Source: Candidatus Sericytochromatia bacterium
GTDB lineage: Bacteria; Cyanobacteriota; Sericytochromatia; S15B-MN24; UBA4093
Direction of reading: 5' to 3'
Length of the DNA stretch: 41,485 nucleotides
Assembly (NCBI GenBank): GCA_036676495.1
Contig: JAKFCT010000084.1
Coordinates: forward strand, 1-41,485
In this document: positions 25,456 to 38,952 of the stretch, in pieces
Numbering within the stretch: the first letter of the stretch is position 1
Layout: the number at the start of each line of letters is the position of its first letter
Notes under the pieces: generated by a model
Databases searched by the model: none
What the model saw: only the letters and a program-made list of their open reading frames with translations
What the model was told of the DNA's origin: nothing
Position numbers and translations under genes: made by a program

Positions 25456-27210
25456 ATGACTCCTAACTCCGACCCGACGATCAGCTGGATCACGGACGCC
25501 GCCGGCCTCGAAGAGGCCGTCCAGACGCTCTCGCGCTGCGAGGCGATCGGGCTCGACACCGAGACCACCGGCCTCGACCCGCATCGCTCCCGCCTGCGCC
25601 TGATCCAGCTCGCCACACCGGACGTCGTCTACCTGATCGACGCCAACCGCATGCGGGACCTGGGCCCCTTGAAGCCCCTCCTGGAGGCGCCCCGTCCCTT
25701 CAAGGTGCTTCACCATGCCAAGTTCGACGCCAAGTTCCTGCGCCGTCGCTACGGGATCCGCCTGAACGGGATCTTCGACACCATGCTCGCGAGCCAGCTC
25801 CTGGGCTCCCGCGACGGGCACAGCCTCGCCGCCGTCGCCTCCCGCTGGCTATCCATCACCATGGACAAGACCATGCAGCGCAGCGACTGGTCCGGCGACC
25901 TCAGCGCGGAGCAAGTTCGCTACGCGGCCCACGACGCCACGGTGCTTTTGCCCCTGCGCGAGGCCATGCGTGCGGCCATCCTCAGCGAGCGGATGAGCCG
26001 CATCGCCGCCCTGGAGTTCTCGGCGGCCCCCGCCATCGGGGGCATCGAGCTGGCAGGCATCCGGCTCGACGGCGTGAAGTGGCTCGCGCTCGCCCGCGAG
26101 CGCGAACGCGAGCACGCGGCCCTGGCCGAGGCCCTTCACCGGGAGCTGGCCCTCGCCGATCCCCAGCTCGCGCTCTTCCCCGAGCACGCCACTTCCCCGC
26201 TCAACCTCAACTCCGTGCCCCAGGTCATGCGTGCCCTGGAGCGGCTCGGGATCCGCGTCCCCGACACCGACGACCTCACCCTCGGCCCCCTCGCCACATC
26301 CCACCCGGTGATCGCCATGCTGCTCGAATACCGCCATGCCGCGAAAGCCCTCAGCTCCTACGGCGAATCCTTCCTGAGCTACATCCATCCCGTCACCGGC
26401 CGGATTCATCCGGAGTTCCACCAGCTGGGGGCCGACACCGGCCGCATGGCGGCCTCGAACCCCAACATCCAGCAGATCCCCAACCAGGAGCGCTACCGTG
26501 CCTGCTTCGTGCCCGACCCCGGCCGCAAGCTGATCATCGCCGACTACTCGCAAATCGAGCTGAGGATCCTGGCCGAGGTCACCCAGGATGCGCAGTTGCT
26601 CCATGCTTTCGAGAGCGGGGCCGATTTACACCGCCTCACGGCCTCAATGATGTTCGGAACCCCGCTCGAGCACGTGAGCAAGGACGAACGCCAGCGGGCC
26701 AAGGCCCTGAACTTCGGCATGGTCTACGGCATGGGGCCCAGCGGGCTCGCCACCCGGCTGGGTTGCAGCCTCGACGAGGCCAAGGAGCTGATCGATCGGT
26801 ACTTTGCGGCTTATCCGGGAGTGCGGGTCTGGCTGCGGCAGGCCGCCCGCAAGGCCGTGGAGACCGGGGAGTGCACGACGCTGGGAGGGCGGCGGATCCG
26901 CTTCGCCAAGCCGGATCCGGAGAACCGGCGGGCGGTGGCCGGCGTGGAGCGCTTCGGCAAGAACGCTCCCTTGCAGGGAACCAGCGCGGACATCACCAAG
27001 CGGGCGATCGCCCTCCTCGACGCGCGCCTTCCCGAGGGCGCCTGCATCGTCAACGTGGTCCACGACGAGATCGTCGTGGAGGCCCCCACGGAAACAGCCC
27101 CCTCCATGGCCGCGCGCTTGCGCGAGACCATGCAGGAGGCCGCAGAAGCTTACCTCACGCGCGTCCCCGTGACCGTCGAGGCCGACGTGGCCGACGCCTG
27201 GATCAAGTAA
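25456..27210 (+). CDS. Family A DNA polymerase with 3'-5' exonuclease but no 5'-3' nuclease (Aquificae-like PolA)
   Basis: ExoI DTETTG, ExoII HHAKFD and ExoIII YAAHD. Polymerase motifs TGRM..NPNIQQIP, ADYSQIELR, KALNFGMVYG, QGTSADI and VHDEIV. 584 aa. Confidence 0.93.
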   Translation: MTPNSDPTISWITDAAGLEEAVQTLSRCEAIGLDTETTGLDPHRSRLRLIQLATPDVVYLIDANRMRDLGPLKPLLEAPRPFKVLHHAKFDAKFLRRRYGIRLNGIFDTMLASQLLGSRDGHSLAAVASRWLSITMDKTMQRSDWSGDLSAEQVRYAAHDATVLLPLREAMRAAILSERMSRIAALEFSAAPAIGGIELAGIRLDGVKWLALAREREREHAALAEALHRELALADPQLALFPEHATSPLNLNSVPQVMRALERLGIRVPDTDDLTLGPLATSHPVIAMLLEYRHAAKALSSYGESFLSYIHPVTGRIHPEFHQLGADTGRMAASNPNIQQIPNQERYRACFVPDPGRKLIIADYSQIELRILAEVTQDAQLLHAFESGADLHRLTASMMFGTPLEHVSKDERQRAKALNFGMVYGMGPSGLATRLGCSLDEAKELIDRYFAAYPGVRVWLRQAARKAVETGECTTLGGRRIRFAKPDPENRRAVAGVERFGKNAPLQGTSADITKRAIALLDARLPEGACIVNVVHDEIVVEAPTETAPSMAARLRETMQEAAEAYLTRVPVTVEADVADAWIK

Positions 27211-28491
27211 CTAGCCGGCGACCGATGCCTCCGTCGCTTCCCGGACCCCCGGGGAGGCGGGGACCGTTCCGACCAGGGAGGCCTGCCCCCGGGGGCCGGT
27301 CTCGGGAAGCAAGAGCCCGCCCAGGGCCAGCACCCAGGAGAAGACGGCCCAGACGGCGAAGGCCGGCACGAAGGAGCCCGTCGCGTCGCGCATCAGGCCC
27401 ACCAGGACCGGCGACAGGGACGAGAACAGGTATGCGAAGCTGAAGACCGTGCCCATCATCAGGCTCACGTGCTGGGGGGTCATGCCCTTGAGCTCCATCG
27501 GAGTGGTGAACAAGGGGGAGACGTACGTGAACATCGCGGCCCCCAGCAGCACGGCCGCCACGGTGATGAAGACCGGGTTGGGGGTGAGGAACATGCCGAA
27601 GCCCGCGAAGCCCATGACGACGCCCGCCCCGATGATGAACGGCCGGCGCAAGCCCAGCTGCTTGGTGAGGAGGCCCGCGACGATGGCCGTGGGGATGCCC
27701 ACCAGGTTGAAGAGGCCGGTGAACTGCGAGGCCGTCGCCTTGCTCATGCCGAACGCCTGCATGTAGTACGTGGGAAGCCAGGTGTTGAAGGCCAGGTAGA
27801 GCGCCAGCGGGCCCGCGAAGGCGAGGGCGATGATCCAGGTCTCCTTCATCCTCCAGACGTCCGCGTAGCGCACCGTGGAGGCGGCTTTCTCACCGGCCGC
27901 GACCGGCTCGGCCACGTGATCCCGGCCCAGCACGGCCCAGGCGAGCATCAGGACGACGCTGAGCACGCCGTAGACGAGGAGGGCGTTACGCCAGCCGAGG
28001 GCGCCCGCGAGCGGGACCGTGGTGAAGAGGGTGACGGCGATCCCGGTGTTGACCGCGACGTTGTTGAAGGCGTTGACCAGTGGCATCTCGGACTTGGGGA
28101 ACCACTGCATGACCATGGGGCCCAAGAGCGTGACGACGATGGCGCCGCCGACACCGAAGACGAAGCGGCTCGCGAGGAAGAGCGTGAAGTCGGAGGTCAA
28201 GGGGGCGATCGCCGCGAAGCAGATGCAGAGCGATCCCAGCAAGATGGTCTTCTTGAGTCCGATCCGAACGGCCAGGAGGCCGGTGAGCAAGGGAGCCACG
28301 ACCTTGGCCACCGAGACCAGCGTGTTGATCATGCCGAGTTGCGCGCTGGTGATGTCGAACTCGGCCTGAAGCTCGCCGACCAGGGGGGTGATGGCGATCC
28401 ACGACAGCCCGAAGACGGCGTAGGTCAGGAAGAGCAAGGTCTCGATGACGAAGCGGTAGGGCGTGTGGGGGGCGGCGTTGGCCGAGGCCAT
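27211..28491 (-). CDS. MFS transporter (CynX-like/organic anion)
   Basis: About 12 hydrophobic helices; GLLAVRIGLKKT and MQWFPKSE motifs. Start ATG 28491 behind AAGGAG. Last gene of the ligase-SDR operon. Confidence 0.85.
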   Translation of the reverse strand: MASANAAPHTPYRFVIETLLFLTYAVFGLSWIAITPLVGELQAEFDITSAQLGMINTLVSVAKVVAPLLTGLLAVRIGLKKTILLGSLCICFAAIAPLTSDFTLFLASRFVFGVGGAIVVTLLGPMVMQWFPKSEMPLVNAFNNVAVNTGIAVTLFTTVPLAGALGWRNALLVYGVLSVVLMLAWAVLGRDHVAEPVAAGEKAASTVRYADVWRMKETWIIALAFAGPLALYLAFNTWLPTYYMQAFGMSKATASQFTGLFNLVGIPTAIVAGLLTKQLGLRRPFIIGAGVVMGFAGFGMFLTPNPVFITVAAVLLGAAMFTYVSPLFTTPMELKGMTPQHVSLMMGTVFSFAYLFSSLSPVLVGLMRDATGSFVPAFAVWAVFSWVLALGGLLLPETGPRGQASLVGTVPASPGVREATEASVAG

Positions 28492-28534
28492 GAGGTGCTC
28501 CTTTCTAAGCAGGTGTTCTCGCGAGCCAGGCCGC

Positions 28535-29275
28535 TTAAAGGACCAATCCCCCATCCACGCCCAGGACCTGGCCGGTGATGAAATCGGCGTCGTCGGAAGC
28601 GAGGAAGAGGTAGGCCTTGGCGATGTCTGCAGGGGTGCCGAGACGTCCGACGGGGGTCTTCTCGCTCATCGCGGCGAGCACCTTCTCGGGCATGGCGGCA
28701 GTCATGTCGGTCTGGATGAAGCCCGGAGCCACGGCGTTGGCGGTGATGCCCTTCCGGCCCAGTTCCTTGGCCCAGGACTTGGTCATGCCGATGACTCCGG
28801 CCTTGGTCGCGGCGTAGTTGGTCTGGCCGAAGTTGCCGTGGACTCCCACGACGCTGGACGCGCTGATGATCTTGCCGCGGCCCTGGGCGACCATCTGGGG
28901 CAGGACGGCCTGCGTGCAGTTGAAGACGCCCTTGAGGTTGACGTCGATGACCGCGTCGAACTGCTCCTCGGTCATCTTGCCGAGCGTCGCATCCATGGTG
29001 ATGCCGGCGTTGTTGATGAGCACGTCGATCCGGCCGAAGCGCTCCATGACCTGCTGGACCATCTCCGCGATCTCGGAGCGCCGGGTGACGTCGAGCGCGT
29101 GCGCCGACGCCTCGCCTCCGGCGCGAACGATCTGCCGGGAAACCTCCTGGACGGCCGCGGGGTCGCGATCGCAGACCGCGACCTGCGCTCCCTCACCGGC
29201 GAGGAGAAGGGCGGTTTCGCGGCCGATGCCGCGACCGGCTCCCGTGATGATGACGACTTTACCTTTGACTCTCAT
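28535..29275 (-). CDS. Acetoacetyl-CoA/3-oxoacyl reductase (PhaB/FabG-type SDR)
   Basis: TGAGRGIG, NNAGIT.D, GNFGQTNYAATKAG and VAPGFIQTDM motifs. The PHA context favours a PhaB role. Confidence 0.9.
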   Translation of the reverse strand: MRVKGKVVIITGAGRGIGRETALLLAGEGAQVAVCDRDPAAVQEVSRQIVRAGGEASAHALDVTRRSEIAEMVQQVMERFGRIDVLINNAGITMDATLGKMTEEQFDAVIDVNLKGVFNCTQAVLPQMVAQGRGKIISASSVVGVHGNFGQTNYAATKAGVIGMTKSWAKELGRKGITANAVAPGFIQTDMTAAMPEKVLAAMSEKTPVGRLGTPADIAKAYLFLASDDADFITGQVLGVDGGLVL

Positions 29276-29294
29276 GGGGTTCCTTTTCTAGGGG

Positions 29295-30842
29295 CTAGAC
29301 CGGGGCGAGCTCGGCCCCGAAGCGCTCGCGCAGGGCGGGCTTGAGGACCTTGCCGGTGGGGTTGCGGGGCAGTTCCGACGTGAAGACCACGGACTTGGGA
29401 AGCTTGTAACGGGCGACCCGTTCACTCAGATACGCGATCACCTGGGCCTCCGTGAGGCTAGCCTCCGTGAGGGCACCGGGGTGCCGAAGGACCACCACGG
29501 CGCGTCCGACCTCGCCCCACTTGGGATGGGGCACACCGATGACCGCCGCCTCCTGGATGGCGGGATGGCCGTGCAGGATCTTCTCCAGCTCCGCGGGATA
29601 GATGTTCTCTCCTCCCGAGATGATCATATCCTTCTTTCGGTCCACGATGGTGAAGTAGCCCTCGTCGTCTTGGCGCACCAGGTCCCCGGTGTGAAGCCAG
29701 CCGTCCCGGATGGCCTGGGCGGTCGCCTGGGGGTTCTTCCAGTAGCCCTTGATGACATGAGGGCCCCGGATCAAGAGCTCTCCCACCTCGCCGGGCGCGA
29801 CGTCCCGATCGTCATCGTCGACCACCCGCACGTCCAGGTGGAAATTGGGGAAGCCCACCGAGCCGGCTTTGCGCACGGCGTCCTTGGCATCGAGCGTGAA
29901 GCAGTTGGGTCCGGCCTCGGTGAGCCCGTAGCCCTGCTTGAAGGTGAGGCCCCGGCGGGCGTAAGCCTCGATCAAGGAGACGGGGCAGGGTGCGCCCCCC
30001 GAGATGAAGAATCGCATGGCCGAGAGATCCGCAGCCTGGAACGCGGGGCTTTCGAGCATCATCTGGAACATGGTCGGCACCGCGAAGACCACGGTGCAGC
30101 GCTCGCGCTCGATGAGCTGCAAGGACTGCGCGGCCTCGAACTGCCGCATCAGCACCACGGTGCCGCCGCGGTGGAAGAGGGGCGTGGTGAGGACGTTCAG
30201 GCCGCCGGTATGGAAGAAGGGCGTATGCGTCAGGGTGATGTCGTCGTTGCGGAGATCCCAGCCCACCTGGGTGTTGATGGCGTTCCAGGTGATGGTCCCA
30301 TGGGTCAGGACGGCGCCCTTGGGCTGGCCGGTCGTGCCCGAGGTGTAAAGGATGAGCCAGGGGTCGTCCAGATCGATCTCGGCGGGCTCGGGGACGCCCG
30401 AGGCGGCCACGGCGAGCAGCTCCTCGTACGAGGTCAGGAGGCCGTCCTCGTGGAAGGGAACGACGTACTCCAGGGAGACCTCGGGCAGGAGGGCCTTCAC
30501 CGTCTCCTCGAACTCGGGGCCGAAGAAGAGGAGGCGGGATTCGGAGTTCTGGAGGATGTAGGCGATCTCCGGACCGATCAGGCGGTAGTTGAGGGGGACC
30601 ATGATGGCGCCCAGCTTGCCGAGCGCGAAGAAGAGCTCAAGGGTTTCGCTGCAGTTGTAGGCGAGCACGGCGACGCGATCGCCCTTCTGGATGCCGTAGC
30701 GAAGGCGCAGGGCGGAAGCGAGCTTGTCGGCCCGCTGGTTGAAAGCCTTGTAGGTCAACCGGCGGCCGGCGGCCACGTCGATGAGGGCGGTCTTCTCGGG
30801 GGCGTAAAGGGCCCAGCGGCTCAGCCAGTCACCAAAGAACAT
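29295..30842 (-). CDS. Fatty-acid/acyl-CoA ligase (AMP-binding)
   Basis: YTSGTTGQPKG, GYGLTE, WLHTGD, DRKKDMIISGGENIYP and PRNPTGKV motifs. Start ATG 30842 behind GGAGG. Confidence 0.93.
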   Translation of the reverse strand: MFFGDWLSRWALYAPEKTALIDVAAGRRLTYKAFNQRADKLASALRLRYGIQKGDRVAVLAYNCSETLELFFALGKLGAIMVPLNYRLIGPEIAYILQNSESRLLFFGPEFEETVKALLPEVSLEYVVPFHEDGLLTSYEELLAVAASGVPEPAEIDLDDPWLILYTSGTTGQPKGAVLTHGTITWNAINTQVGWDLRNDDITLTHTPFFHTGGLNVLTTPLFHRGGTVVLMRQFEAAQSLQLIERERCTVVFAVPTMFQMMLESPAFQAADLSAMRFFISGGAPCPVSLIEAYARRGLTFKQGYGLTEAGPNCFTLDAKDAVRKAGSVGFPNFHLDVRVVDDDDRDVAPGEVGELLIRGPHVIKGYWKNPQATAQAIRDGWLHTGDLVRQDDEGYFTIVDRKKDMIISGGENIYPAELEKILHGHPAIQEAAVIGVPHPKWGEVGRAVVVLRHPGALTEASLTEAQVIAYLSERVARYKLPKSVVFTSELPRNPTGKVLKPALRERFGAELAPV

Positions 30843-30883
30843 CGGAGGTCCTCCATCACAACGAGGGGAAGCGATTGGAGGAA

Positions 30884-30916
30884 ACTGTAACAACCTCACG
30901 TTACATCGTCGTTACA
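30884..30916 (-). promoter_or_regulatory. Promoter with tandem SARP-type heptamer boxes (ligase-SDR-MFS operon)
   Basis: Minus strand reads TGTAACG-acga-TGTAACG-N9-TACAGT; repeat period 11 bp. Confidence 0.7.
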
Positions 30917-30979
30917 TCCACCTGCTTTTCGCCCGGGCGGAGAGCAGGCGCGTCATGGGCGGTCCCTGAGGCGTGAAGA

Positions 30980-31849
30980 TCAGGGGTTTGCGGGGGTGAC
31001 GGGAACGGAGTAGGTGGACAGCTCACCGTAGTATTCGAGCGACATCGGGTCGATCCGGGGATCGCGGGTGAAATGGATCTGCTCATATTTGATCAGGCCC
31101 AGACCGGGGGCGAACCAGCGCGTGATGGTCATTCCCATCTCGACCTTCCCGAAGAACCCCTTCGAATGCTCGGCATGGTAGCTGTTGGTCAGCTGAGAGG
31201 TACGCACCTCGACGCAATCCTTGAAGGTACCGGCCGCCGTCACCACCGTCTTCCCCGTGGCCGTGGTGGCCGTCTCCGCGCCCGCCATGACGGTGATCGT
31301 ATCTTGGTAGCCGTTGACGGTCTCGACGTGCGTGCTGCTGGAGGCCTCCCGGATCACTCTCACGCTGTCCTTGACGGGGAAAGGCAGCAGCAAGTGCGCC
31401 GATTCGGCCATGGACGGTTTTCGGTAGAGCCCATCGCGCTTCTTGAAGTAAAGGGTCGCGAAGGGGGTGATCGGCCCTGCGTTCAAGTTGAGCCCGCTCA
31501 CCCAGATGCTGGCGGTGGCCTGCTCGTCTTGGACCTCGACCGTGGTGACCTCATGCTGGAGGAGCACCCGATCCTCCGTGCGGCCCAGGGCGCCGCCGAG
31601 ATCCGAGATCTCCGTCGTCTGGTATTGCAGGGTCAACCCCTTGCGCAGGCCCAGGTAATCGTCGCTGGGGAGTTTCTCCGCGGTCTTGTCACCTGGCGAT
31701 TTCGTGTCCCCGTCGGATGCGTCGCCAGAAGAGCCTGTCTTGTCGCCCGAGCGCGACTCCTCCTGACCGGGAGGGGAGACGAGGCCTTGAAGCGGGATCC
31801 GCTCGCAACCGACGAGTAGCAATGCCACAAGAAAGACGTGAAGCCGCAT
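30980..31849 (-). CDS. Hypothetical lipoprotein
   Basis: Lipobox LVGC, Ser/Gly/Asp linker, beta-rich C-terminus with TAAGTFKDC...WFAPGLGLIK. GAGGAGG SD. Confidence 0.75.
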   Translation of the reverse strand: MRLHVFLVALLLVGCERIPLQGLVSPPGQEESRSGDKTGSSGDASDGDTKSPGDKTAEKLPSDDYLGLRKGLTLQYQTTEISDLGGALGRTEDRVLLQHEVTTVEVQDEQATASIWVSGLNLNAGPITPFATLYFKKRDGLYRKPSMAESAHLLLPFPVKDSVRVIREASSSTHVETVNGYQDTITVMAGAETATTATGKTVVTAAGTFKDCVEVRTSQLTNSYHAEHSKGFFGKVEMGMTITRWFAPGLGLIKYEQIHFTRDPRIDPMSLEYYGELSTYSVPVTPANP

Positions 31850-31921
31850 GGAGCCTCCTCAGAAGACGCTATGGAGGCTTTATACCCTTGCTTACTTGTG
31901 AGTATGCGCTCTGCGGGTCGG

Positions 31922-34900
31922 CTAGCTCAGACCCACGGCGTCCAGGGGCTGCAACTGGGTGATGCGGTCGAAGAGCAGTTGCGTCTCGGGCATGGGGTCG
32001 ACGCCCAGTTCCTCATCCAGGGCGACGACACAGCGATCGTACGTGCGCAGGGCCATGGGGCGATCGCCCTGCCGGTACTGGGCCGCCATCGCGATCCGGT
32101 ACGCCTCCTCGGCGCAACGATCCCGTTCGATCAGCCGCTGGGCCCAAAGCGCGGCCCCCGTATCATCCCCCTGAGCGTAGTACAGCCGAGCCAGCTTCAG
32201 GGCGCCCTCCTTGTAACGATCCGCCAGACGCTCCCGCTCCCGCTCGCACCACGCCTCGTACTGGGGAAATTCCACGAGGAACTCTCCCTCGGAGAGCTCC
32301 AGCGCCTGCTGATACAGCTCCAGGGGATTCCCTCCCAGTGCCTCCATCGCCTGGGCCTCATCCAGCAGGCGTTCGAACTCCGCCGCGTCGATCCAGACGT
32401 CAGGCCCGACCATCAGGCCGTAATTCGCGCCTTCCCTCAAGATGAAGCGGGGGATGCCTCCCTTGCGTTCGGGCTCCAGGACCTTGTTGAGGGCGTTGAG
32501 CGCCACCCGGAAGGTGCCATCCGCCGCTCCGAGCTCGAGGTCGGGCCAGAGGGTATCGATGATGCGCGGCTTGGGGATCATCTGCCCGCGTTGCGCCAGG
32601 AAGAGGTGAAAGAGCTGGCGGGCCTTCTCGCGGCCCCAGGCCCGTCCCCCGATCTCCGATTGGCCCCTCCAGACCCGAAACGCGCCCAGCGTGCGGATCC
32701 GGAGCGCGTCTTCGCGCAAGACCGGGGCCTCGACGACGAGACCCGCTTCGCTCAGCCAGGGCGAGAGGAGGGCCGGGGCGATGCCCCGGTCGAGCGCCGT
32801 TCCCAGGAAGGCCTGGGCCTGCGCGGAGTCGGCGAAACCGAGCAAGGTCGGCTTGCTCAGCAGATACCCGACGCCATGGCGCTTCAGGAGTTCGAGCACG
32901 CGCCGGATCCGGGTGAGGACCGCCTTGCCTTCCCCGAGGGCCATGGCGAGCCGCGCCGACCACAAGGCGACCAGGGTCATGCCGAAGGGATCCCCGCAGC
33001 GCTCGTATCCGGATTGCGCCTGCATCAGCCAGCGCTCGGCCCTGGGATCCCCGTGCGCCACGTAAATGCTCCCCTGAGCCAGGCTCAGCATGGCGCAGAG
33101 CCAGGCATCCCCCGTCTCCTTGGCAATTTCGAGGCCGTCCTTGGCATGGGTCTCGGCGAGGTGGAGGTCTCCTCGGCGTCCCGCGACGAAGGCGAGGCCC
33201 ATCAAGCTCTCGGCCTTGAGGCGGGGGATGCCGATGGCGCGGGCGAGGGCGATCGCCTCCCGGTAAACGCCTTCCGCCTCGTCCAGCTGGCCCTCCAGCA
33301 AGGCCGCATGCCCCAGGCGAATGAGCGCAACCGCTTCGGTCCAGAGCGCCCCCTGCTCCTTGGCACGTTCCAAGCCCCGAGAGGCCAGCTCCCGTGCCGC
33401 CAGAGGCTCTCCCTGCAAGGCCTCGATCAGCGAGAGCACCAGCGACGCCTCGCGATGGGCCTTGGTCCCCGCCGTGGGATCATGGGGCTGACTCAGCGCG
33501 GCTTGAAGGACGGCCCGGGCCTCCTGGAGACGGCCGGTCCTCAGAAAGATCCGTGCCGACTGCTCGGAAAGTTCGGGCAGGCGCTCCCGGGCTTCCCGGA
33601 AGAGGGCCTCCGCCGCCTCCGAGTCTCCCTGGTTGAGCTTGTTCTCGGCGAGCATCACCAGCAGCTCCGTCCGGCGGTCGGAATCCTGGGTTTCGGCAAG
33701 GGCCTCCTCGAGATGCATCGAGGCCTTGGCAGGCTGAAGGGTATCCAGGTAGACCAGAGCCTTGGAGGCCTGGGCGCGGCTGCGGCCCTCGGCGTTTGCT
33801 CCATAGCCGCGGTAGGCGCGGTCGTACCAGTCGAGCGCCGCCTCGAAGCGTGAGGTCAACCGGCATGCATCCCCCTGGTGGATGGCCAGAGCCGGAGCCT
33901 GATCGACGAGCGCGGGCGAGAGGCGCGAAAGCCAGGATTCCAGGCGCGCGTACCGGCCCTGGTTCACGAGGCCTGGAGCCGCGGCGGCCAGGCCCTCCGC
34001 GGCCTTGCCTTCCTCGCCGGCTTCCAGGTAGTGATCGATGGCGCCTTCGAGGTCCCCGCGGCGCTTCAGGACCTCGGCCACGGCCAGATGCGCCGGCTGC
34101 AAGCGGTTTTCCGCCGCGAGGCGCTCGCGCAGGAACTCTCTAAACAAGTGATGGTAGCGATACCCGCCGTCGCCCAGGGGGACCAGGAAGACTCCGCGCT
34201 CGTTGAGCGCCGCCAGGTCGTCGGAGGCGTCTCGCCCGGCCAGTTCGCGGCAGACGTCGGGCCAGAGCTGCGGCAACGGCGCCGTCGCGAAGAGGAAGTC
34301 GCGATCGCGCTCGCTCAAGCGATCCAGGACCTCGGAAGCCAGGTAATCGAAGAGGTCCCGCAGCGAGCCCCGGGACTCCGGAATCTCGCCCCCCTGGTGC
34401 TGGGCCAAGAGCCTCAAGGCCATCGGCCAGCCCTCGGTCTCACTCATCAAGCGCGTGATTGCCTCGGCCTCCAGCGGCAAGCCCAGGATCTCAGCGAAGA
34501 GGGCTTCCACCTCGTCGGCGCGGAAGGCCAGCTCCGCTTGAACGATGAAGAGCGCATCCCCTCGCAGGCGCCACTTGGGGAGGCCGGGAAGATCGGGGCG
34601 CACGCGGGACGCCAGGACCACGTGGAGCTTGGGCAAACGCTGGCCTATCAAGTGGTTGGCCAGCAACAAGGCGGATTCCGAGCCTTGGAGATGATGGAAG
34701 TCGTCGAGCACCAGCCAGGTATCGGTGTCGAGACGATCCAGCAGCGCGTCGGCGAGGGCCTCGACGGCGGCAAGTCCCTGCTTGGCGGCGCCCCCCGGCA
34801 GCGAGAGCAAGGCCAGCATCCGATCCGCGACGCCCGGGTAGGCGCGCTGGAAGAGATGGGCGAGATGGAGCAAGAAGAGCTGAGCGTCCGCTTCGCGCTC

Positions 34901-35119
34901 GGAGATCTCGTACCAGAGCGCGGCATGCCGGCGGTCGTGCAGGTAGCCCGCGAGCAGCGAGCTCTTGCCGTAGCCCGTTCCTCCCAGGACCAGGGTCAGG
35001 GGGACGTCCATCGACGCATCGAGCAAACGGTGCAGCCGCTCGCGCCGCATGTGGGTTCGCTTGAGCGGGGGAACGATGAACTTCGTGCGGGTGACGAGCG
35101 CGTCTCCGAAATCGGACAA
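31922..35119 (-). CDS. MalT-like STAND ATPase/TPR regulator with C-terminal winged-helix and BTAD (SARP-type) domains
   Basis: TRTKFIVP, GGTGYGKS, LVLDDFH, TEGWPMAL and YRYHHLF (MalT-like). IRTLGAF, WPD, WIDA.EF, EEAYR and EELGVDP (SARP/BTAD). Probable TTG start at 35119 behind GAGG, with TTGAAG-18-TATGAT upstream. Confidence 0.9.
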   Translation of the reverse strand: MSDFGDALVTRTKFIVPPLKRTHMRRERLHRLLDASMDVPLTLVLGGTGYGKSSLLAGYLHDRRHAALWYEISEREADAQLFLLHLAHLFQRAYPGVADRMLALLSLPGGAAKQGLAAVEALADALLDRLDTDTWLVLDDFHHLQGSESALLLANHLIGQRLPKLHVVLASRVRPDLPGLPKWRLRGDALFIVQAELAFRADEVEALFAEILGLPLEAEAITRLMSETEGWPMALRLLAQHQGGEIPESRGSLRDLFDYLASEVLDRLSERDRDFLFATAPLPQLWPDVCRELAGRDASDDLAALNERGVFLVPLGDGGYRYHHLFREFLRERLAAENRLQPAHLAVAEVLKRRGDLEGAIDHYLEAGEEGKAAEGLAAAAPGLVNQGRYARLESWLSRLSPALVDQAPALAIHQGDACRLTSRFEAALDWYDRAYRGYGANAEGRSRAQASKALVYLDTLQPAKASMHLEEALAETQDSDRRTELLVMLAENKLNQGDSEAAEALFREARERLPELSEQSARIFLRTGRLQEARAVLQAALSQPHDPTAGTKAHREASLVLSLIEALQGEPLAARELASRGLERAKEQGALWTEAVALIRLGHAALLEGQLDEAEGVYREAIALARAIGIPRLKAESLMGLAFVAGRRGDLHLAETHAKDGLEIAKETGDAWLCAMLSLAQGSIYVAHGDPRAERWLMQAQSGYERCGDPFGMTLVALWSARLAMALGEGKAVLTRIRRVLELLKRHGVGYLLSKPTLLGFADSAQAQAFLGTALDRGIAPALLSPWLSEAGLVVEAPVLREDALRIRTLGAFRVWRGQSEIGGRAWGREKARQLFHLFLAQRGQMIPKPRIIDTLWPDLELGAADGTFRVALNALNKVLEPERKGGIPRFILREGANYGLMVGPDVWIDAAEFERLLDEAQAMEALGGNPLELYQQALELSEGEFLVEFPQYEAWCERERERLADRYKEGALKLARLYYAQGDDTGAALWAQRLIERDRCAEEAYRIAMAAQYRQGDRPMALRTYDRCVVALDEELGVDPMPETQLLFDRITQLQPLDAVGLS

Positions 35120-35198
35120 GGTTGACCTCTCATGCCCTCGAGCGTTCCTGCGCCCATCATAAGGCAGAAGGGGCGTTCCCTTCAATCTTCCGCTAATT

Positions 35199-35335
35199 GT
35201 CCCCCCTTGACGGGGGGACCGGCGAAGCCGAGGGGGGTGTTTGCCGGCGCAGCCATGGCGTTCCTCGTTCTAAGGAACCTGAAGCAGTAACACCCCCCTC
35301 TCGGCTACGCCGAGGTCCCCCCGTCAAGGGGGGAC
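35199..35335. repeat. MITE/REPIN-like inverted-repeat element
   Basis: Perfect 22-bp inverted termini GTCCCCCCTTGACGGGGGGACC / GGTCCCCCCGTCAAGGGGGGAC, each itself a hairpin. Imperfect inner arms extend the inverted repeat to about 45 bp. Confidence 0.8.
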
Positions 35336-35348
35336 GAGACAAGGAAGA

Positions 35349-36431
35349 TTAGACTGAGCGCTCGGAGAGCCAGGCGTTGAGCTTGGGGAAGAGGTTCTTC
35401 GAGGCGGAGCGGCCCGCCACGATCCCCACGTGCCCCGCCCGGATGGGCAGCTCCGTCGCATCCGAGCTGGAAACCACCGAAAGCAGCGGCTTGGACTGGC
35501 TGGGCTGGGCGATGTGATCCAGCTCCGCGTAGACGTTGAGCAACGAGCACCGGATGTTTTCCAGCAAGACCGGCCGGCCTCCCAGCCGCAACTCACCCTT
35601 GATGAGCTTGTTCTGCTGGTAGAACTCCGTGATCCACTGGCGGTAGGCGGCCCCCGCGAAGGGAATGCCATCGTTGACCCAGCGGTTCATGGCCATCCAG
35701 CCCTTCACGTACTCCCGGTCCTCGATGCGGTCTAAGAGGGCGGCGTAGGTGCCCAGGTAGTTCTGCATCGGCTTGAGCATCTTGGCTCCCCAGTCGAGCA
35801 TCTCGGTGGGCACCAGCTTGCAGGTCTCGGCCACCCGGTCGGCGTTGAAGTAGCGGGGATTCAGCCAGGCCGTGTAGAGGCCGGCATCGGTGAAGTCGAT
35901 CGGAGTGGCGAGCAAGACCAGGTTCTTCAGGGGGGCGTCGGGATGGCATGCGGCGTACATCGCCGAGAGCGTGCCGCCGATGCAGTAGCCGAGCATGCTC
36001 AGCTCCTTGGCACCCGAGTGGCGCAGGACCTGCTTCACGGCGCGGGGCAGGTATTCGAGGACGTAATGGTCCATCGAGAGGCCCGCATCCTCTTCGCCGG
36101 GGTGGCCCCAGTCGATCATGAACACGTCATAGCCTTCCGAGACCAGGTACTCCACCAAGCTGTTGCCCGGCATCAGATCCAGGATGTAAGGGCGGTTGAT
36201 GAGGGCGTAGACCAGCAGAATAGGCACCGCATGCCGGCGCTCCGGCTGATGGTAGCGATAGAGCTTGGCCTTGTTCTTGGTCCAGACGACGTCCTTGGGC
36301 GTCATGCCCACGGGCGCCGCCACGGGCTGGGCCACGTGCTGCCAGGCGGCTTCCGCCTGGGTCCAACTCCGCTCGAACTCCCGGCGAAGCGTCTCGGTGA
36401 GAGAATCTAAGGTCTCGGATGGCTGGGTCAT
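35349..36431 (-). CDS. phaC: Polyhydroxyalkanoate synthase, class III/IV-size catalytic subunit
   Basis: 360 aa. TPKDVVWTKNKAKLYRY, YALINRPYILDL.PGNSLVEYL, DWG, lipase-like box GYCIGG, catalytic Asp (ELDHI) and His (AGHVG). Confidence 0.95.
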   Translation of the reverse strand: MTQPSETLDSLTETLRREFERSWTQAEAAWQHVAQPVAAPVGMTPKDVVWTKNKAKLYRYHQPERRHAVPILLVYALINRPYILDLMPGNSLVEYLVSEGYDVFMIDWGHPGEEDAGLSMDHYVLEYLPRAVKQVLRHSGAKELSMLGYCIGGTLSAMYAACHPDAPLKNLVLLATPIDFTDAGLYTAWLNPRYFNADRVAETCKLVPTEMLDWGAKMLKPMQNYLGTYAALLDRIEDREYVKGWMAMNRWVNDGIPFAGAAYRQWITEFYQQNKLIKGELRLGGRPVLLENIRCSLLNVYAELDHIAQPSQSKPLLSVVSSSDATELPIRAGHVGIVAGRSASKNLFPKLNAWLSERSV

Positions 36432-36453
36432 GGCGCGTCGGGCTCCTGTTCGC

Positions 36454-36792
36454 TTACGGCTTGGAGATGGAGTCGACGCGGGCCGCGAGATCCTCGACCT
36501 GGCGGCGAAGGGCGCCGACGGTCATGAGATCCCAGCCGGGAACGTGCTGGGTGGTGCTCGCCATGGTCTGCTCGGCCAGGCGGGCCATCTCCTCGGAGTG
36601 GACCTTGGCCTGCGAGACGAGGACTTCGAAGACCTTCTCGCCGTCGTGGCGCATGGTGTGGGCCTGCTTCATCCAGGTGGCGGCGAGGGTCTCGAGCTGA
36701 TCCTGGCTCCAGTTGAGGGCCTTGGCGTTCGAAAGGGCGGCATCCAGCATCTCGCCGGTCAGGGTGGAAAGGATGGGGGCTGCAGTCGTCAT
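36454..36792 (-). CDS. Putative phasin / PHA granule-associated protein
   Basis: Small amphipathic helical protein with a C-terminal LRRQVEDLAARVD coiled coil, located between the PhaR-like gene and phaC. GAGGAG SD. Confidence 0.55.
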   Translation of the reverse strand: MTTAAPILSTLTGEMLDAALSNAKALNWSQDQLETLAATWMKQAHTMRHDGEKVFEVLVSQAKVHSEEMARLAEQTMASTTQHVPGWDLMTVGALRRQVEDLAARVDSISKP

Positions 36793-36819
36793 GGACATTC
36801 TCCTCGTGAGGGGGGCGGG

Positions 36820-37245
36820 CTACTTGGAGGGACGCTTGGGTTTGGGGGCCTCGACGCCCCGTTCCGGGGTGACCGTGCGGACGGTCATTCCCGAATCGAG
36901 ACGTTCGAGGATGAGGTCGAGCCGATTGAAGAGGGCGTCGAGCTTGCCCTCCATGGCGTCGAGGCGATCGTCGAGGGCGTCGACCTTGGCCTCCAGGTCG
37001 ACCACTTGGCCCGCGAGCCGGGCGAGATCGGTCTTGGTGAGCAGACGCAGGCTGTCCCAGTGCTTTTCCAGGCTCTCCCGCGAGAGCTGATGCTGCGTGA
37101 GGGACTGCTCGCGGGTGGCGCTCATCCAGCTGACGAAGGACTCGGTACCGAGCATCTCCTGCATCGGCTTGCTCCACAGCTCCTCGGAGCGGTCGTAGAG
37201 CTCTTTCCAGGTCTTGAAGAGATCCGGGGGGGCTTGGGTGGTCAT
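36820..37245 (-). CDS. PHA synthase accessory subunit, Bacillus PhaR(class IV)-like / short PhaE-like
   Basis: About 141 aa. DLFKTWKELYD...W...TESFVSWM...TKTDLARLA...DLEAKVD pattern resembles Bacillus PhaR. First gene of the phaC operon. Confidence 0.7.
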   Translation of the reverse strand: MTTQAPPDLFKTWKELYDRSEELWSKPMQEMLGTESFVSWMSATREQSLTQHQLSRESLEKHWDSLRLLTKTDLARLAGQVVDLEAKVDALDDRLDAMEGKLDALFNRLDLILERLDSGMTVRTVTPERGVEAPKPKRPSK

Positions 37246-37282
37246 GGCGCTCATCCTCTTGCTATCCAACCTTGCTGAGGCA

Positions 37283-37328
37283 AGACTAGAGCGAGGACGT
37301 TACAGCCTCGTTACGAGAGGTCGTTACA
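37283..37328 (-). promoter_or_regulatory. Promoter with three SARP-type heptamer boxes (PHA synthase operon)
   Basis: Minus strand reads TGTAACG-N6-CGTAACG-N4-TGTAACG-N9-TAGTCT. Confidence 0.7.
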
Positions 37329-37332
37329 AGAG

Positions 37333-38604
37333 CTAGCGCTGGTTGAGGATGTCCAGGAGCCAGGATTTGGCGGCCGGAGCGTAGATCAGCTCCATGTGGT
37401 TGAGGGGCAGGACGTCCTTGGCCCGGAGCTTGGCGCCGGCACGGGTCATGTCCTGGGTATGCGTGGCGCTCTTGAGGAAGACCACGCCGTCGGCGGGACC
37501 GGTCGTCTCGTTGAGGACGCCCGCGAGGTCGGGCTGATCGCCGGCCAGGACGGCGAGTTCGACGCCGGGATCCAGGGGGTTCTTGCGCAGGCGGTCGATG
37601 AAGTGTCCCCCCTGGGCGATCGCCTTGTCGATACCGGCGCTCTCGCTGACGAAGCCCCGGCCTCCGTGGTAGGTCGTGTACCAGTCCTGCTCGATCCGGG
37701 GCAGCGGGTAAACGTCGTCCCAGCGGTAGAGGAGCTGGGACTGGCCCGGGAAGAAGTTGCCCGCGTCCGTCATCAGGGTCAAGGGGGTGGTATCGATCCA
37801 GAGTCCCATGACCAGCATCTTGGTCCAGGACATCGGAGCGTTGCGGAGGCGGTCGTCCTGCTCGGGGTAGAGCCCGTAGTTGACCAGCGGGTGGCGGAAG
37901 GGGAAGTCGAGGCCGAGGTGAGGGCCACCCAGCAGGATGAGGCGGCGCACGTCCTTGGCGTAAGGGGTCATCCAGGGTTGGCGGACGCCCGAGACCAGCG
38001 CGCGGGCCGCGACGGTCCCCTTGCTGTGGGCCACGAGATCGACCTCCGCCGAGCCGGTCACTTCGCGGATCCGGGCGATCGCCCACGCAATCTGCTCGGC
38101 CCAGAGCAGGTTGTCGCCATGCCGATGCGCGAACGTCAAGGCGAAGACCCGCTTTCCCTTGCCCGAAAGGTAAGGTGCAAGGCCTTCCTTGTCGTGGGGA
38201 TCGTGCCAGGAGGTGTTGGCATCGACCATGACGCCGTGAATCAAGAGCACCGGAGGGCCCTCGCCCTGATCCCAGCCGCGCGCGTAGTGAAGGAGGACGT
38301 CGCGCGAAGGGGGGACGGCCGTCCCGAAGGCCTCGATCAGCTCGGGATCGCGTTGCCGGCCGTTGGGGCGGGCCTTTTCTTGGGGAAAGTCACGCGAGGT
38401 GGCGGTGAGGCGCTCGATTCGATCCCAGTTTTTCCCCCGGACGGTCGCGCTCAGCTTGTAAGGACCAGCGGCACGCGCCGCGACGGTCGAGGCCGAGGGG
38501 CCCGAGGAGAGGTCAATAGCCCCGAGCCCGTCGGGGCGTCCGCAGCCAGCCATGGTTATAACGCTCGCACACAGGGCGATCCAGAACTGCTTCGGACGAG
38601 CCAT
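37333..38604 (-). CDS. Lipoprotein alpha/beta hydrolase (lipase/esterase)
   Basis: Lipobox MAGC; PVLLIHG oxyanion motif; AHSKG nucleophile elbow; DGVV and NHMEL for Asp/His. Start ATG 38604 behind GAGGA (alternative 38616). Confidence 0.85.
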   Translation of the reverse strand: MARPKQFWIALCASVITMAGCGRPDGLGAIDLSSGPSASTVAARAAGPYKLSATVRGKNWDRIERLTATSRDFPQEKARPNGRQRDPELIEAFGTAVPPSRDVLLHYARGWDQGEGPPVLLIHGVMVDANTSWHDPHDKEGLAPYLSGKGKRVFALTFAHRHGDNLLWAEQIAWAIARIREVTGSAEVDLVAHSKGTVAARALVSGVRQPWMTPYAKDVRRLILLGGPHLGLDFPFRHPLVNYGLYPEQDDRLRNAPMSWTKMLVMGLWIDTTPLTLMTDAGNFFPGQSQLLYRWDDVYPLPRIEQDWYTTYHGGRGFVSESAGIDKAIAQGGHFIDRLRKNPLDPGVELAVLAGDQPDLAGVLNETTGPADGVVFLKSATHTQDMTRAGAKLRAKDVLPLNHMELIYAPAAKSWLLDILNQR

Positions 38605-38952
38605 CGGGGTCCTCATCGACTTCCCTTGCGTTTCGCTGCCACCACTCGTTCAGATATCGTTCATACACCCGATTGACTTGCTCGATCAAGTGTTCGTCGA
38701 AAACGCAAATCCCGATGCCCCGGAGCTTACTGGCCCCTGGGTCCCGCAAGCCCTGTCGCGAAGCGGATCGCCGATTTCCCTCCGGCCCAGCGCGGCCGCC
38801 GCGTCCATCCTACCTTCCGGACGGCTCGCCTCCGAGAGCCAAGAGGGAGAACTCCGAGGGACAAGAGGGAGAAACCGAGGCGCCCTTCGCGTCCGATTGA
38901 ACCACGTCCCCGAAGGGTACAAATCCCCTACTCACCTCATTGCGAGCCCACC

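Follow-up and report, generated by a model that had tools for sequence, protein, structure and literature searches.

Metabolism of polyhydroxybutyrate (PHB) is usually described under the control of granule-binding repressors (PhaR/AniA, PhaQ) and of global regulators. Among polyhydroxyalkanoate (PHA) loci, the class IV cluster of Bacillus megaterium and B. cereus (phaP-phaQ, phaR-phaB-phaC) combines the subunit PhaR and a PhaC of about 40 kDa with a FabG-like reductase and a small phasin gene, lacks phaA, and has PhaQ as its PHB-responsive repressor. That a pha cluster may do without phaA is already known from B. megaterium phaRBC, as stated in a 2021 review (PMC9049629). Here we describe a gene island at positions 27211-38616 of a 41,485-nucleotide stretch of DNA, hereafter the window, from Candidatus Sericytochromatia bacterium (assembly GCA_036676495.1, contig JAKFCT010000084.1), a member of a different phylum (Cyanobacteriota, class Sericytochromatia). 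The island joins a PHA synthase operon to a CoA ligase operon and to a regulator that combines a MalT-like STAND (signal transduction ATPase with numerous domains) NTPase with the output module of a Streptomyces antibiotic regulatory protein (SARP), and both operons are preceded by the same tandem operator. On balance we think it probable, though far from certain, that the island is the core of a SARP-type-activated regulon for PHB and 3-hydroxybutyrate (3HB), in which (R)-3-hydroxybutyryl-CoA forms the node between storage and catabolism.

The window is contig C84 (41.5 kb) of a metagenome-assembled genome (MAG) of 4.14 Mb in 106 contigs, which is 91.9% complete and 6.7% contaminated; statements on genes absent from the genome refer to this approximately 92%-complete MAG. 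A search of sequencing runs with positions 28617-38616 listed DNA contigs from soil metagenomes and no RNA run. Analysis of open reading frames (ORFs) and family profiles recovered nine genes in the island, all on the minus strand, in agreement with the gene list of an earlier, sequence-only reading of this DNA. That reading ended the island at 38604, which is 12 nt short, the start of the outermost gene, a hydrolase, being at 38616.

The regulator gene (31922-35185, 1087 aa as listed) probably has its true start some 20 codons into the listed frame, and a sigma-70-like element, TTGAAG-18-TATGAT, lies at its 5' end (35156-35185). Residues 34-533 of the protein match the STAND NTPase of MalT (NF003420, E 3.9e-59; PDB 8bob, E 4e-24), residues 511-770 are tetratricopeptide (TPR) repeats (TPR_MalT, 55.7 bits against a cut-off of 45), and residues 824-1077 align with the N-terminal SARP module of AfsR (NF053617, model residues 25-267). 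The C-terminus thereby comprises a winged helix and a BTAD domain (PF03704, 59.2 bits against 22.1; PDB 8hvr_I, E 6.9e-9), with Trans_reg_C matching at E 0.014 only in the window protein and at E 1.7e-6 in a relative at locus L128. When four relatives from as many phyla, each with 32-39% identity to the window protein, were aligned, the Walker B residues D161 and D162 and 27 residues between positions 828 and 922 proved invariant.

Two described regulator types are close to this protein. MalT of Escherichia coli and the LAL regulators share with it an N-terminal STAND NTPase (or nucleotide-binding oligomerisation domain, NOD) with Walker motifs and a TPR-like sensor arm, and they are ATP- and ligand-dependent activators, as is predicted for the window regulator, but their output is a LuxR-type helix-turn-helix; family scans found no LuxR/GerE domain in the window regulator, whose C-terminus is SARP, and its NF003420 score of 200.6 bits is under the MalT equivalog cut-off of 537. 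AfsR and the other large SARPs of Streptomyces likewise consist of SARP, NOD/STAND ATPase and TPR parts and act on direct repeats at 11-bp spacing near a -10 element that replace a good -35 element. Their order is SARP-NOD-TPR, with the SARP module at the N-terminus, whereas the window regulator is NOD-TPR-SARP with a MalT-like NOD; and they control antibiotic clusters in actinomycetes, while the type described here stands with storage-polymer and ketone-body genes in Cyanobacteriota, Chloroflexota, Bacillota and others and is associated with a different repeat, YGTAAC. Judged by its domains, the protein appears to work like SARP and MalT while being a full member of neither. The sequence-only reading had proposed control by a ligand-sensing activator instead of the usual granule-titrated repressor, and this agrees with a STAND activator of predicted ligand/ATP type and with the profile search of the whole genome, in which no PHB_acc_N domain, and hence no PhaR-type repressor, was found. 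A second NOD-TPR-SARP protein of similar length is encoded elsewhere (G000:C52:52266-55370) and shares 28% identity with the window regulator over residues 34-1075.

The operator has the form YGTAAC-N5-YGTAAC. In the 63-bp gap between the hydrolase gene and phaR (operator and promoter together at 37283-37328, minus strand), YGTAAC occurs three times, at 37323-37328, 37310-37315 and 37299-37304, with spacings of 13 and 11 bp, and the last copy is followed after 10 nt by a -10-like hexamer, TAGTCT (37283-37288). Ahead of the ligase operon (30884-30916, minus strand), TGTAAC stands at 30911-30916 and 30900-30905, 11 bp apart, again followed after 10 nt by a hexamer, TACAGT (30884-30889). These are the two exact tandem sites of the window, one for each operon promoter; with up to two mismatches allowed the window holds six matches, a count that none of 100 shuffles reached, and across the whole 4.14-Mb genome three exact sites were counted, with no match to the reversed control. 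Enrichment is confined to the tandem form, the 8-mer GATGTAAC by itself giving 9 matches in the window where 8.1 are expected. In SARP promoters the direct repeats have a spacing of 11 or 22 bp, and 8 bp separate the 3' repeat from the -10 element (PMC10936776); the layout found here, with YGTAAC at an 11-bp period and 10 nt to a TAnnnT hexamer, corresponds to this pattern. We infer that the regulator binds the YGTAAC tandem repeats and that these replace the -35 element.

The third genomic site, on contig C80, is followed after 54 nt by an operon that encodes a MetX-like esterase, a membrane protein and a 3-hydroxybutyrate dehydrogenase (BdhA). The dehydrogenase exceeds both of its models (NF009093, 385 bits against 258; TIGR01963, 351 against 307), while the E22-type MetX-like esterase stays under its cut-off (NF005262, 351 bits against 450). 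The 463-aa membrane protein has no Pfam or NCBIfam match, and an Atlas feature search gives a GntP-like permease as a lead. Parts of this operon belong to the island in related genomes: an orthologue of the MetX-like esterase is found inside the island with its own operator copy in three of them (G010, G012 and G013), in G010 together with an orthologue of the dehydrogenase. The fullest regulon on a single contig is that of G010 (C44:41900-58100, locus L086 and upstream), which has seven operator sites within about 15 kb; phaR-phaC and the hydrolase gene are each present twice there, along with the genes for the ligase, the regulator, the MetX-like esterase, the MFS (major facilitator superfamily) transporter, the short-chain dehydrogenase/reductase (SDR) and BdhA.

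Within the class, operator and regulator occur together. We compared 47 genomes with 18 unique loci, 17 of which carry 40 exact sites in all, most with TAnnnT 10 nt downstream. The gene downstream of the site is phaR in 17 cases and the ligase in 10; the hydrolase (in family f4 only) and the MetX-like esterase account for three each, another SDR for two, a Bdh gene, the MFS transporter and the phasin-like gene for one each, and two sites precede no labelled gene. The phaR operator is at the matching position in 16 of the 18 loci and the ligase operator is kept in 10. Genome-wide, 13 of the 15 genomes with a regulator orthologue have two to seven exact sites (47 in total, against two for the reversed control), and in genomes without the regulator the counts are at or under the control.

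The genes themselves are retained and lost together. A PhaC orthologue (at least 55% identity) is present in 19 of the 47 genomes, which belong to three families of one order. Orthologues of the ligase (at least 63%) occur in 18 genomes, 17 of them PhaC-positive (17/19, compared with 1/28 of the others, this lone genome being only 81% complete), those of the MFS transporter (at least 56%) in 17, of which 16 are PhaC-positive (16/19), those of the regulator (at least 43%) in 15, of which 14 are PhaC-positive (14/19), and those of the hydrolase (at least 53%) in 15, of which 13 are PhaC-positive. In the fifteenth genome with a regulator, G019, the island (C11:3115-8559, locus L110) is decaying: of phaC a remnant with three stop codons is left, orthologues of ligase and MFS transporter are missing, and what persists is the hydrolase, the phasin-like gene, the regulator and an SDR preceded by an operator. 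Gene order is not constant: in G012 and G013 regulator-ligase-MFS and hydrolase-phaR-phasin-phaC are transcribed away from each other, phaR-phaC occurs twice in G010, and in family f4 about 5 kb separate phaC from a diverged regulator (28-31% identity), which is followed by the ligase. That the genes stay linked through such rearrangement and are lost together speaks for a functional unit. The view that ligase, SDR and MFS transporter belong with phaC, already put forward in the sequence-only reading, is thus borne out by their co-occurrence, by linkage despite rearrangement and by the one operator carried by both operons. The other orders of the class (families f6 and f7; G036-G045, G029-G034; loci L095-L098) are organised otherwise: a tandem pair of PhaC-like genes (28-35% identity to the PhaC of the window) stands beside a FabG-like SDR (44-51%), and there neither a STAND-SARP orthologue nor operator enrichment was found.

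The operon behind the first operator encodes a putative PhaR-type synthase subunit with a coiled coil (36820-37269, 149 aa; true start likely at ATG 37245), a phasin-like helical protein (36454-36798, 114 aa) and a class III/IV PhaC (35349-36431, 360 aa), which is the sole PhaC of the genome. PhaC reaches the class III model TIGR01836 (386 bits against a cut-off of 365.3) and has a lipase-like box, GYCIG, in its translation. The PhaR-like protein matches TIGR02132 (phaR_Bmeg) with E 6.4e-15 and 55.6 bits, below the cut-off of 148.4, over model positions 2-102 of 189, and the phasin-like protein matches Pfam Phasin at E 0.02 only. Orthologues of phaR stand upstream of phaC in every class locus with enough DNA, and the phasin-like gene is kept between the two in families f1 and f2 (31-82% identity); no PhaE was found among the ORFs scanned. 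The three genes encode a putative two-subunit PHA synthase resembling that of the Bacillus class IV cluster. Compared with the latter, the island has a STAND-SARP activator with tandem-repeat operators where Bacillus has PhaQ, adds a CoA ligase, an MFS transporter and a lipoprotein hydrolase, and has a PhaR under the family cut-off. A further ORF of 249 aa (36428-37177), which overlaps phaR and the phasin-like gene, was rejected as a spurious frame, being of low complexity, rich in Arg, Pro and Gly and without any family.

The association extends far beyond the class. Among 336 relatives of the regulator found outside it in species-representative genomes, 78 loci were used, or 76 when two same-genus MAGs are set aside. 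In the 76 loci we counted 49 exact sites, 20 of them with TAnnnT at +10, while the reversed control gave none, and when the spacer was changed to 2, 3, 4, 6, 7 or 9 nt no site was left, while 8 nt gave two. These loci span Anaerolineae, Chloroflexia, Thermoflexales, Paenibacillus, Brevibacillus, Anoxybacillus, Cohnella, Bipolaricaulia, Vulcanimicrobiota and others, and the sites are mostly located right after the regulator gene, ahead of the next operon (SDR, KASIII or ligase). Partners near the regulator in the 78 loci are an SDR (39), the ligase (36), a KASIII-like protein (PRK06840; 29), an alpha/beta hydrolase of about 362 aa (21), an intracellular short-chain-length (scl) PHA depolymerase-like protein (15), a CoA-transferase of the butyryl-CoA:acetate type (11), a hydrolase of the window family (10) and PhaC (4). 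Ligase and CoA-transferase never occur together in the 47 loci that have either of them; absences in these loci mean little, because many of them end at contig ends. Two representative depolymerases, from Bacillota, pass NF050089 (394 and 357 bits against 300), and Chloroflexia loci contain an extracellular-type Esterase_PHB and a solute-binding protein. In the Vulcanimicrobiota-type order, phaC, phaR, a small protein and the hydrolase follow one another, and L128 has in addition the regulator, an MFS transporter (53% identity) and an SDR (57% identity). The sequence-only reading had named conservation of the neighbourhood across phyla as a check on its proposal, and we indeed find BTAD regulator, ligase and SDR, in part with the hydrolase, conserved across phyla; in Sericytochromatia and Vulcanimicrobiota phaC is part of the neighbourhood, and in other groups PHB depolymerases are. 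With the ligase slot taken by a CoA-transferase of C2-C4 type, these loci point to activation of a short acid, and BdhA in the regulon together with PHB depolymerases as partners makes 3HB the obvious candidate.

Further observations on these loci concern single genes. The KASIII-like gene, above the cut-off of its model (NF005308, PRK06840), is frequent in Chloroflexota and Bacillota loci (L169, L175, L202-L210, L152 and others); an NphT7-like acetoacetyl-CoA synthase function is one possibility. MaoC genes occur in related loci outside the source genome. An apparent PhaC-ligase fusion in Planctomycetota (L160, an 807-aa ORF) was rejected: the PhaC-like tblastn match begins 113 nt before the ORF and hence in a different frame, and the ORF itself matches no PhaC family, so that the genes are merely adjacent.

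The second operon of the island would handle the monomer. Its first gene encodes an AMP-forming acyl-CoA ligase, listed at 29295-30899; the start is most likely ATG 30842, which is preceded by a GGAGGA ribosome-binding site, and not GTG 30899, giving a predicted protein of 515 aa (29295-30842). The ligase carries the AMP-binding domain and passes PRK06187 (512.8 bits against 476), which together with PRK06839 forms its best NCBIfam matches, and its nearest solved structures are 8weu/8wev and FadD13, which puts it in a group with FadD13, feruloyl-CoA synthetase and MenE-like enzymes. Because of this grouping a C4 substrate is not evident from the ligase sequence alone, and the acetoacetyl-CoA synthetase model is not among the best 25 of its 108 NCBIfam matches. 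We propose, from the genomic context, that the enzyme activates 3HB or a related short hydroxy or oxo acid.

The SDR (28535-29275, 246 aa) meets the FabG model TIGR01830 (315.5 bits against 297.75) and is a second FabG-like copy, as the FabG of the fab cluster sits on contig C72. It directly follows phaC in G012 and G013. An Asp at the end of beta-2 predicts NAD(H) over NADPH in SDR enzymes; the window protein has Asp36 at this position, as do its three best PDB matches (4nbu, 4nbv and 4nbw), which are reported to be NADH-dependent. The SDR is proposed to be an NAD(H)-linked (R)-3-hydroxyacyl-CoA/acetoacetyl-CoA oxidoreductase and an analogue of PhaB. The MFS transporter (27211-28554, 447 aa as listed; MFS_1, E 1.2e-42) has orthologues of 56-90% identity, and its start may lie downstream of the listed one, since these align from residue 17-33.

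The hydrolase (37333-38616, 427 aa) is an alpha/beta hydrolase with a weak Lipase_2/DUF7379 match. Its triad of Ser198 (in the motif AHSKG), Asp376 and His407 is invariant in 24 sequences. The N-terminus ends in a lipobox, MAGC, the Cys of which is conserved in Sericytochromatia and Melainabacteria members, and the protein is predicted to be an exported lipoprotein; the signal is absent from Vulcanimicrobiota homologues beside phaC and mixed in Bacillota members. The AlphaFold2 model (pLDDT 85.8) retrieved only generic alpha/beta hydrolases from the PDB with Foldseek. In a wide structure search the generic BlEst2 scored Z 20.5 and PhaZ7 (5mlx) ranked seventh with Z 18.5, the rows being nearly tied, so that the model resembles lipases, esterases and PHB depolymerases about equally. 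At the sequence level there are weak lipase matches in the PDB (best E 0.0011), weak matches to lipase and palmitoyl-thioesterase models, and 16.6 bits (E 0.0033) against the PhaZ7 equivalog NF050060, which has a cut-off of 450. We consider the protein a candidate polyester or oligomer hydrolase. A search of the genome collection confirmed 506 relatives, of which 80 loci were kept; near the hydrolase these contain PhaC (17), MFS (14), ligase (13), regulator (13), intracellular PHB depolymerase (iPhaZ; 4), CoA-transferase (4) or Esterase_PHB (2), and none of these partners in 34. In families f6 and f7, which have no regulator, the hydrolase is divergent to an MFS homologue (34-39% identity), and in four loci a distant ligase paralogue follows.

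The island was also said to be free of thiolase, and this is true of the island, with no thiolase on the contig of the window, and not of the genome, where at least six thiolase genes are encoded elsewhere, so that only the island deserves the description. The best-scoring of them (G000:C5:11049-12907, L192) adjoins a CoA-transferase subunit at a contig end as an ato/sco-like pair, which could supply or consume acetoacetyl-CoA; no operator was found near this pair. The hydratase gene phaJ, reported as missing from the window, is missing more widely, since a profile search of the whole genome found no MaoC/PhaJ. Esterase_PHB has no match in the genome, and NF050089, the intracellular scl-PHA depolymerase model, has none above its cut-off.

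In the reading that we favour, a constitutively made STAND-SARP protein would be switched on by ATP and a small ligand, bind the tandem repeats in its active form and bring RNA polymerase to three promoters without a -35 element. This would activate the phaR-phasin-like-phaC operon, the ligase-SDR-MFS operon and, on another contig, the operon for the MetX-like esterase, the GntP-like permease and BdhA. 3HB or a close relative would then be taken up by the MFS transporter and the permease, the monomer possibly being released by the exported hydrolase and, in other phyla, by PHB depolymerases. The ligase would turn 3HB into its CoA thioester, and the resulting (R)-3-hydroxybutyryl-CoA would have two possible fates, polymerisation by PhaRC or oxidation to acetoacetyl-CoA by the SDR with its predicted use of NAD(H). 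Running in reverse as PhaB, the SDR could, with the thiolases encoded elsewhere, support ordinary PHB synthesis, and BdhA, CoA-transferase and thiolase would form a parallel, classical catabolic branch. The scheme shares BdhA in the regulon and a CoA-transferase beside a thiolase elsewhere with the classical PHB cycle (PhaZ, BdhA, succinyl-CoA:3-oxoacid CoA-transferase or acetoacetyl-CoA synthetase, and thiolase), but differs from it in a FadD13/MenE-like ligase, in a proposed step from 3HB to 3HB-CoA that skips acetoacetate, and in an activator in place of PhaR/AniA.

Several findings weigh against this regulon. The hydrolase has no operator in the source genus, its fold is generic, it is absent (E<=1e-10) from six of the 19 PhaC-positive genomes, and the 34 partnerless loci make up a large part of its 80 homologue loci. 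The ligase passes the cut-off of a "long-chain-fatty-acid--CoA ligase" subfamily, which makes a longer substrate possible, and its nearest structures are of fatty-acyl, feruloyl and FadD13 type. The SDR fails the acetoacetyl-CoA reductase models (TIGR01829, 249.7 bits against 302.1; NF009546, 224 against 418), and the PhaR and phasin-like proteins score under their family cut-offs. Two genomes with PhaC and a STAND orthologue, G021 and G022, lack an exact operator as well as orthologues of the ligase and the MFS transporter; the MAG carries 6.7% contamination; regulator and repeats are paired by adjacency and architecture; and the KASIII-like gene of 29 of the 78 loci has no place in the model.

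Of the competing explanations, the one that survives best is a salvage route into storage, in which external PHA or other esters are hydrolysed and the acids are imported, activated to CoA esters (with the SDR serving oxo acids) and polymerised directly by PhaRC, so that the island would chiefly serve to convert polyester of other cells into a store of its own. This is close to the scavenging route of the sequence-only reading, of which the exported hydrolase with its lipobox, the shared operator, the PHB depolymerase partners and the BdhA operon uphold a part, while the operator-less hydrolase of the genus and its loss in six of 19 genomes speak against the rest. The conserved lipobox, the operator common to phaRC and ligase-SDR-MFS, the divergent hydrolase-MFS pair of families f6 and f7, sometimes with a distant ligase paralogue, and the Esterase_PHB with solute-binding protein in Chloroflexia fit such salvage, as does the lack of any other recognised PHB depolymerase in the genome. 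A dispensable hydrolase outside the operator's reach fits it poorly, however, and so do the missing signal peptide of the Vulcanimicrobiota homologues beside phaC, the intracellular depolymerases of the Bacillota versions and the score of 16.6 bits against 450 for PhaZ7; BdhA in the regulon, moreover, points to burning of 3HB as well. We regard pure salvage as unlikely, though a serious contender.

Alternatively, ligase and SDR could recycle 3HB from the cell's own granules to 3HB-CoA and acetoacetyl-CoA as an internal module of the PHB cycle, to which transporter and hydrolase would be accessory; the linkage with phaC would then reflect no more than joint control of that cycle. Bacillota loci with NF050089 depolymerases, iPhaZ-like proteins in 15 of 78 loci and BdhA in the regulon are consistent with this, and the NAD(H) preference suggested by Asp36 under the general SDR rule would suit oxidation. 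The genome, however, has no intracellular depolymerase above cut-off, its sole candidate hydrolase is predicted to be exported, the regulon contains two importers, and switching on the synthase along with a module that only degrades would be futile, which makes an internal cycle quite unlikely.

A route for medium or long chains would combine a lipase or thioesterase that frees fatty or 3-hydroxy fatty acids, a FadD/AlkK-like ligase for 3-hydroxyacyl-CoA or fatty-acyl-CoA and a 3-ketoacyl-CoA-reducing SDR for a longer-chain PHA. It would account for the long-chain subfamily match and FadD13-type structures of the ligase, the FabG equivalog of the SDR, the KASIII-like and MaoC genes of related loci and the weak lipase and palmitoyl-thioesterase matches of the hydrolase. 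It does not account for the butyryl-CoA:acetate-type CoA-transferase, which takes the ligase slot in 11 loci and points to a C4 acid, for the 3HB dehydrogenase in the regulon, for the scl-PHA depolymerases as partners in other phyla, or for the lack of MaoC/PhaJ in the genome, and class III/IV PhaC are short-chain enzymes as a rule. There is a precedent in the PhaG and 3-hydroxyacyl-CoA ligase route of Pseudomonas (described in PMC9049629), which resembles the island in its alpha/beta hydrolase, AMP-forming ligase, PhaC and thiolase-independent supply; the hydrolase of the island is of another family and predicted to be exported, though, its PhaC is class III/IV and not II, and its context points to C4 acids. 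We judge a longer-chain route very unlikely. That the locus is an ordinary pha cluster (SDR as PhaB, thiolase elsewhere) with ligase, MFS, hydrolase and regulator nearby by chance is highly improbable, since the operator is common to both operons and occurs in three genomic places only, loss and retention of the genes coincide across 47 genomes, linkage outlasts rearrangement and the association recurs across phyla, even though thiolases are encoded elsewhere, phaA-less clusters such as B. megaterium phaRBC are known (PMC9049629) and 39 PhaC loci outside the class (at most 42% identity, two same-genus MAGs excluded) include no STAND-BTAD gene and only two ligases.

To return to the favoured PHB/3HB regulon, its regulator-operator pair would tie a PHA synthase to uptake, CoA activation and oxidation of 3HB, and the regulon is directly testable, as its motif is short, its DNA-binding domain soluble and the number of candidate effectors small. 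For PHB engineering, the ligase is of interest as a candidate 3-hydroxybutyrate-CoA ligase and the SDR as a putative NADH-type analogue of PhaB, the widespread uncharacterised hydrolase family with its 506 relatives gains a functional lead, and the island offers a first view of storage-polymer metabolism in non-photosynthetic relatives of the cyanobacteria. We found no description of such a regulator, operator or island among the papers listed by full-text literature searches, which do not cover subscription journals, and the terms SARP, AfsR, MalT and STAND do not occur in the 2021 review of PHA regulatory circuits (PMC9049629). A bolder extension, which we hold to be tentative and unlikely in full, is that ATP-dependent STAND-SARP sensors across phyla detect 3HB, its CoA ester or oligomers and, acting through the YGTAAC tandem operator, switch on a "steal and store" re-polymerisation of external PHB that bypasses acetyl-CoA, with the NAD-linked SDR setting the split between storage and respiration. 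Polymer left by dead neighbours would be broken down outside the cell, and its monomer, once imported and activated by a dedicated ligase or a CoA-transferase, would go straight to PhaRC. Were this to hold, PHB metabolism would have its first master regulator of activator type, and primary metabolism its first SARP regulon beyond the actinomycetes.

The flanks of the island consist of unrelated genes, among them those for a PolA-like polymerase, a VWA protein, a histidine kinase, MalQ and an SNF2 helicase. The PolA-like protein (25456-27210, plus strand, 584 aa) has 3'-5' exonuclease and polymerase domains and lacks the 5'-nuclease domain, and the stop codon of its gene meets that of the convergent MFS gene with zero gap. 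On the other side, a PAS histidine kinase (38953-40320, plus strand) is divergent to the hydrolase. Kinase homologues (32-38% identity) recur in or beside the island in other genera (L080, L083, L089, L009 and L010), in L083 between regulator and ligase, which may be due to chance or reflect a second layer of control.

Between regulator and ligase lies a gene for a lipoprotein of 289 aa (30980-31849, minus strand), which has a signal ending in LLVGC and belongs to no family, its best match being weak and DUF3108-like (E 0.0055). In the two same-genus relatives (L009 and L010) it is missing from this place, regulator and ligase being separated by 40-99 bp, and it is present as a single copy in the genome, which places it outside the conserved set; a repeated mobile element as the origin of the insert was ruled out by this one copy. 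In the gap between phaC and the regulator gene, a G+C-rich hairpin can be read directly in the sequence in two copies (35200-35340, minus strand), each consisting of a C run, TTGAC and a G run. Located between the phaC stop and the regulator gene, the pair may act as a terminator or insulator or may represent a small repeat element.

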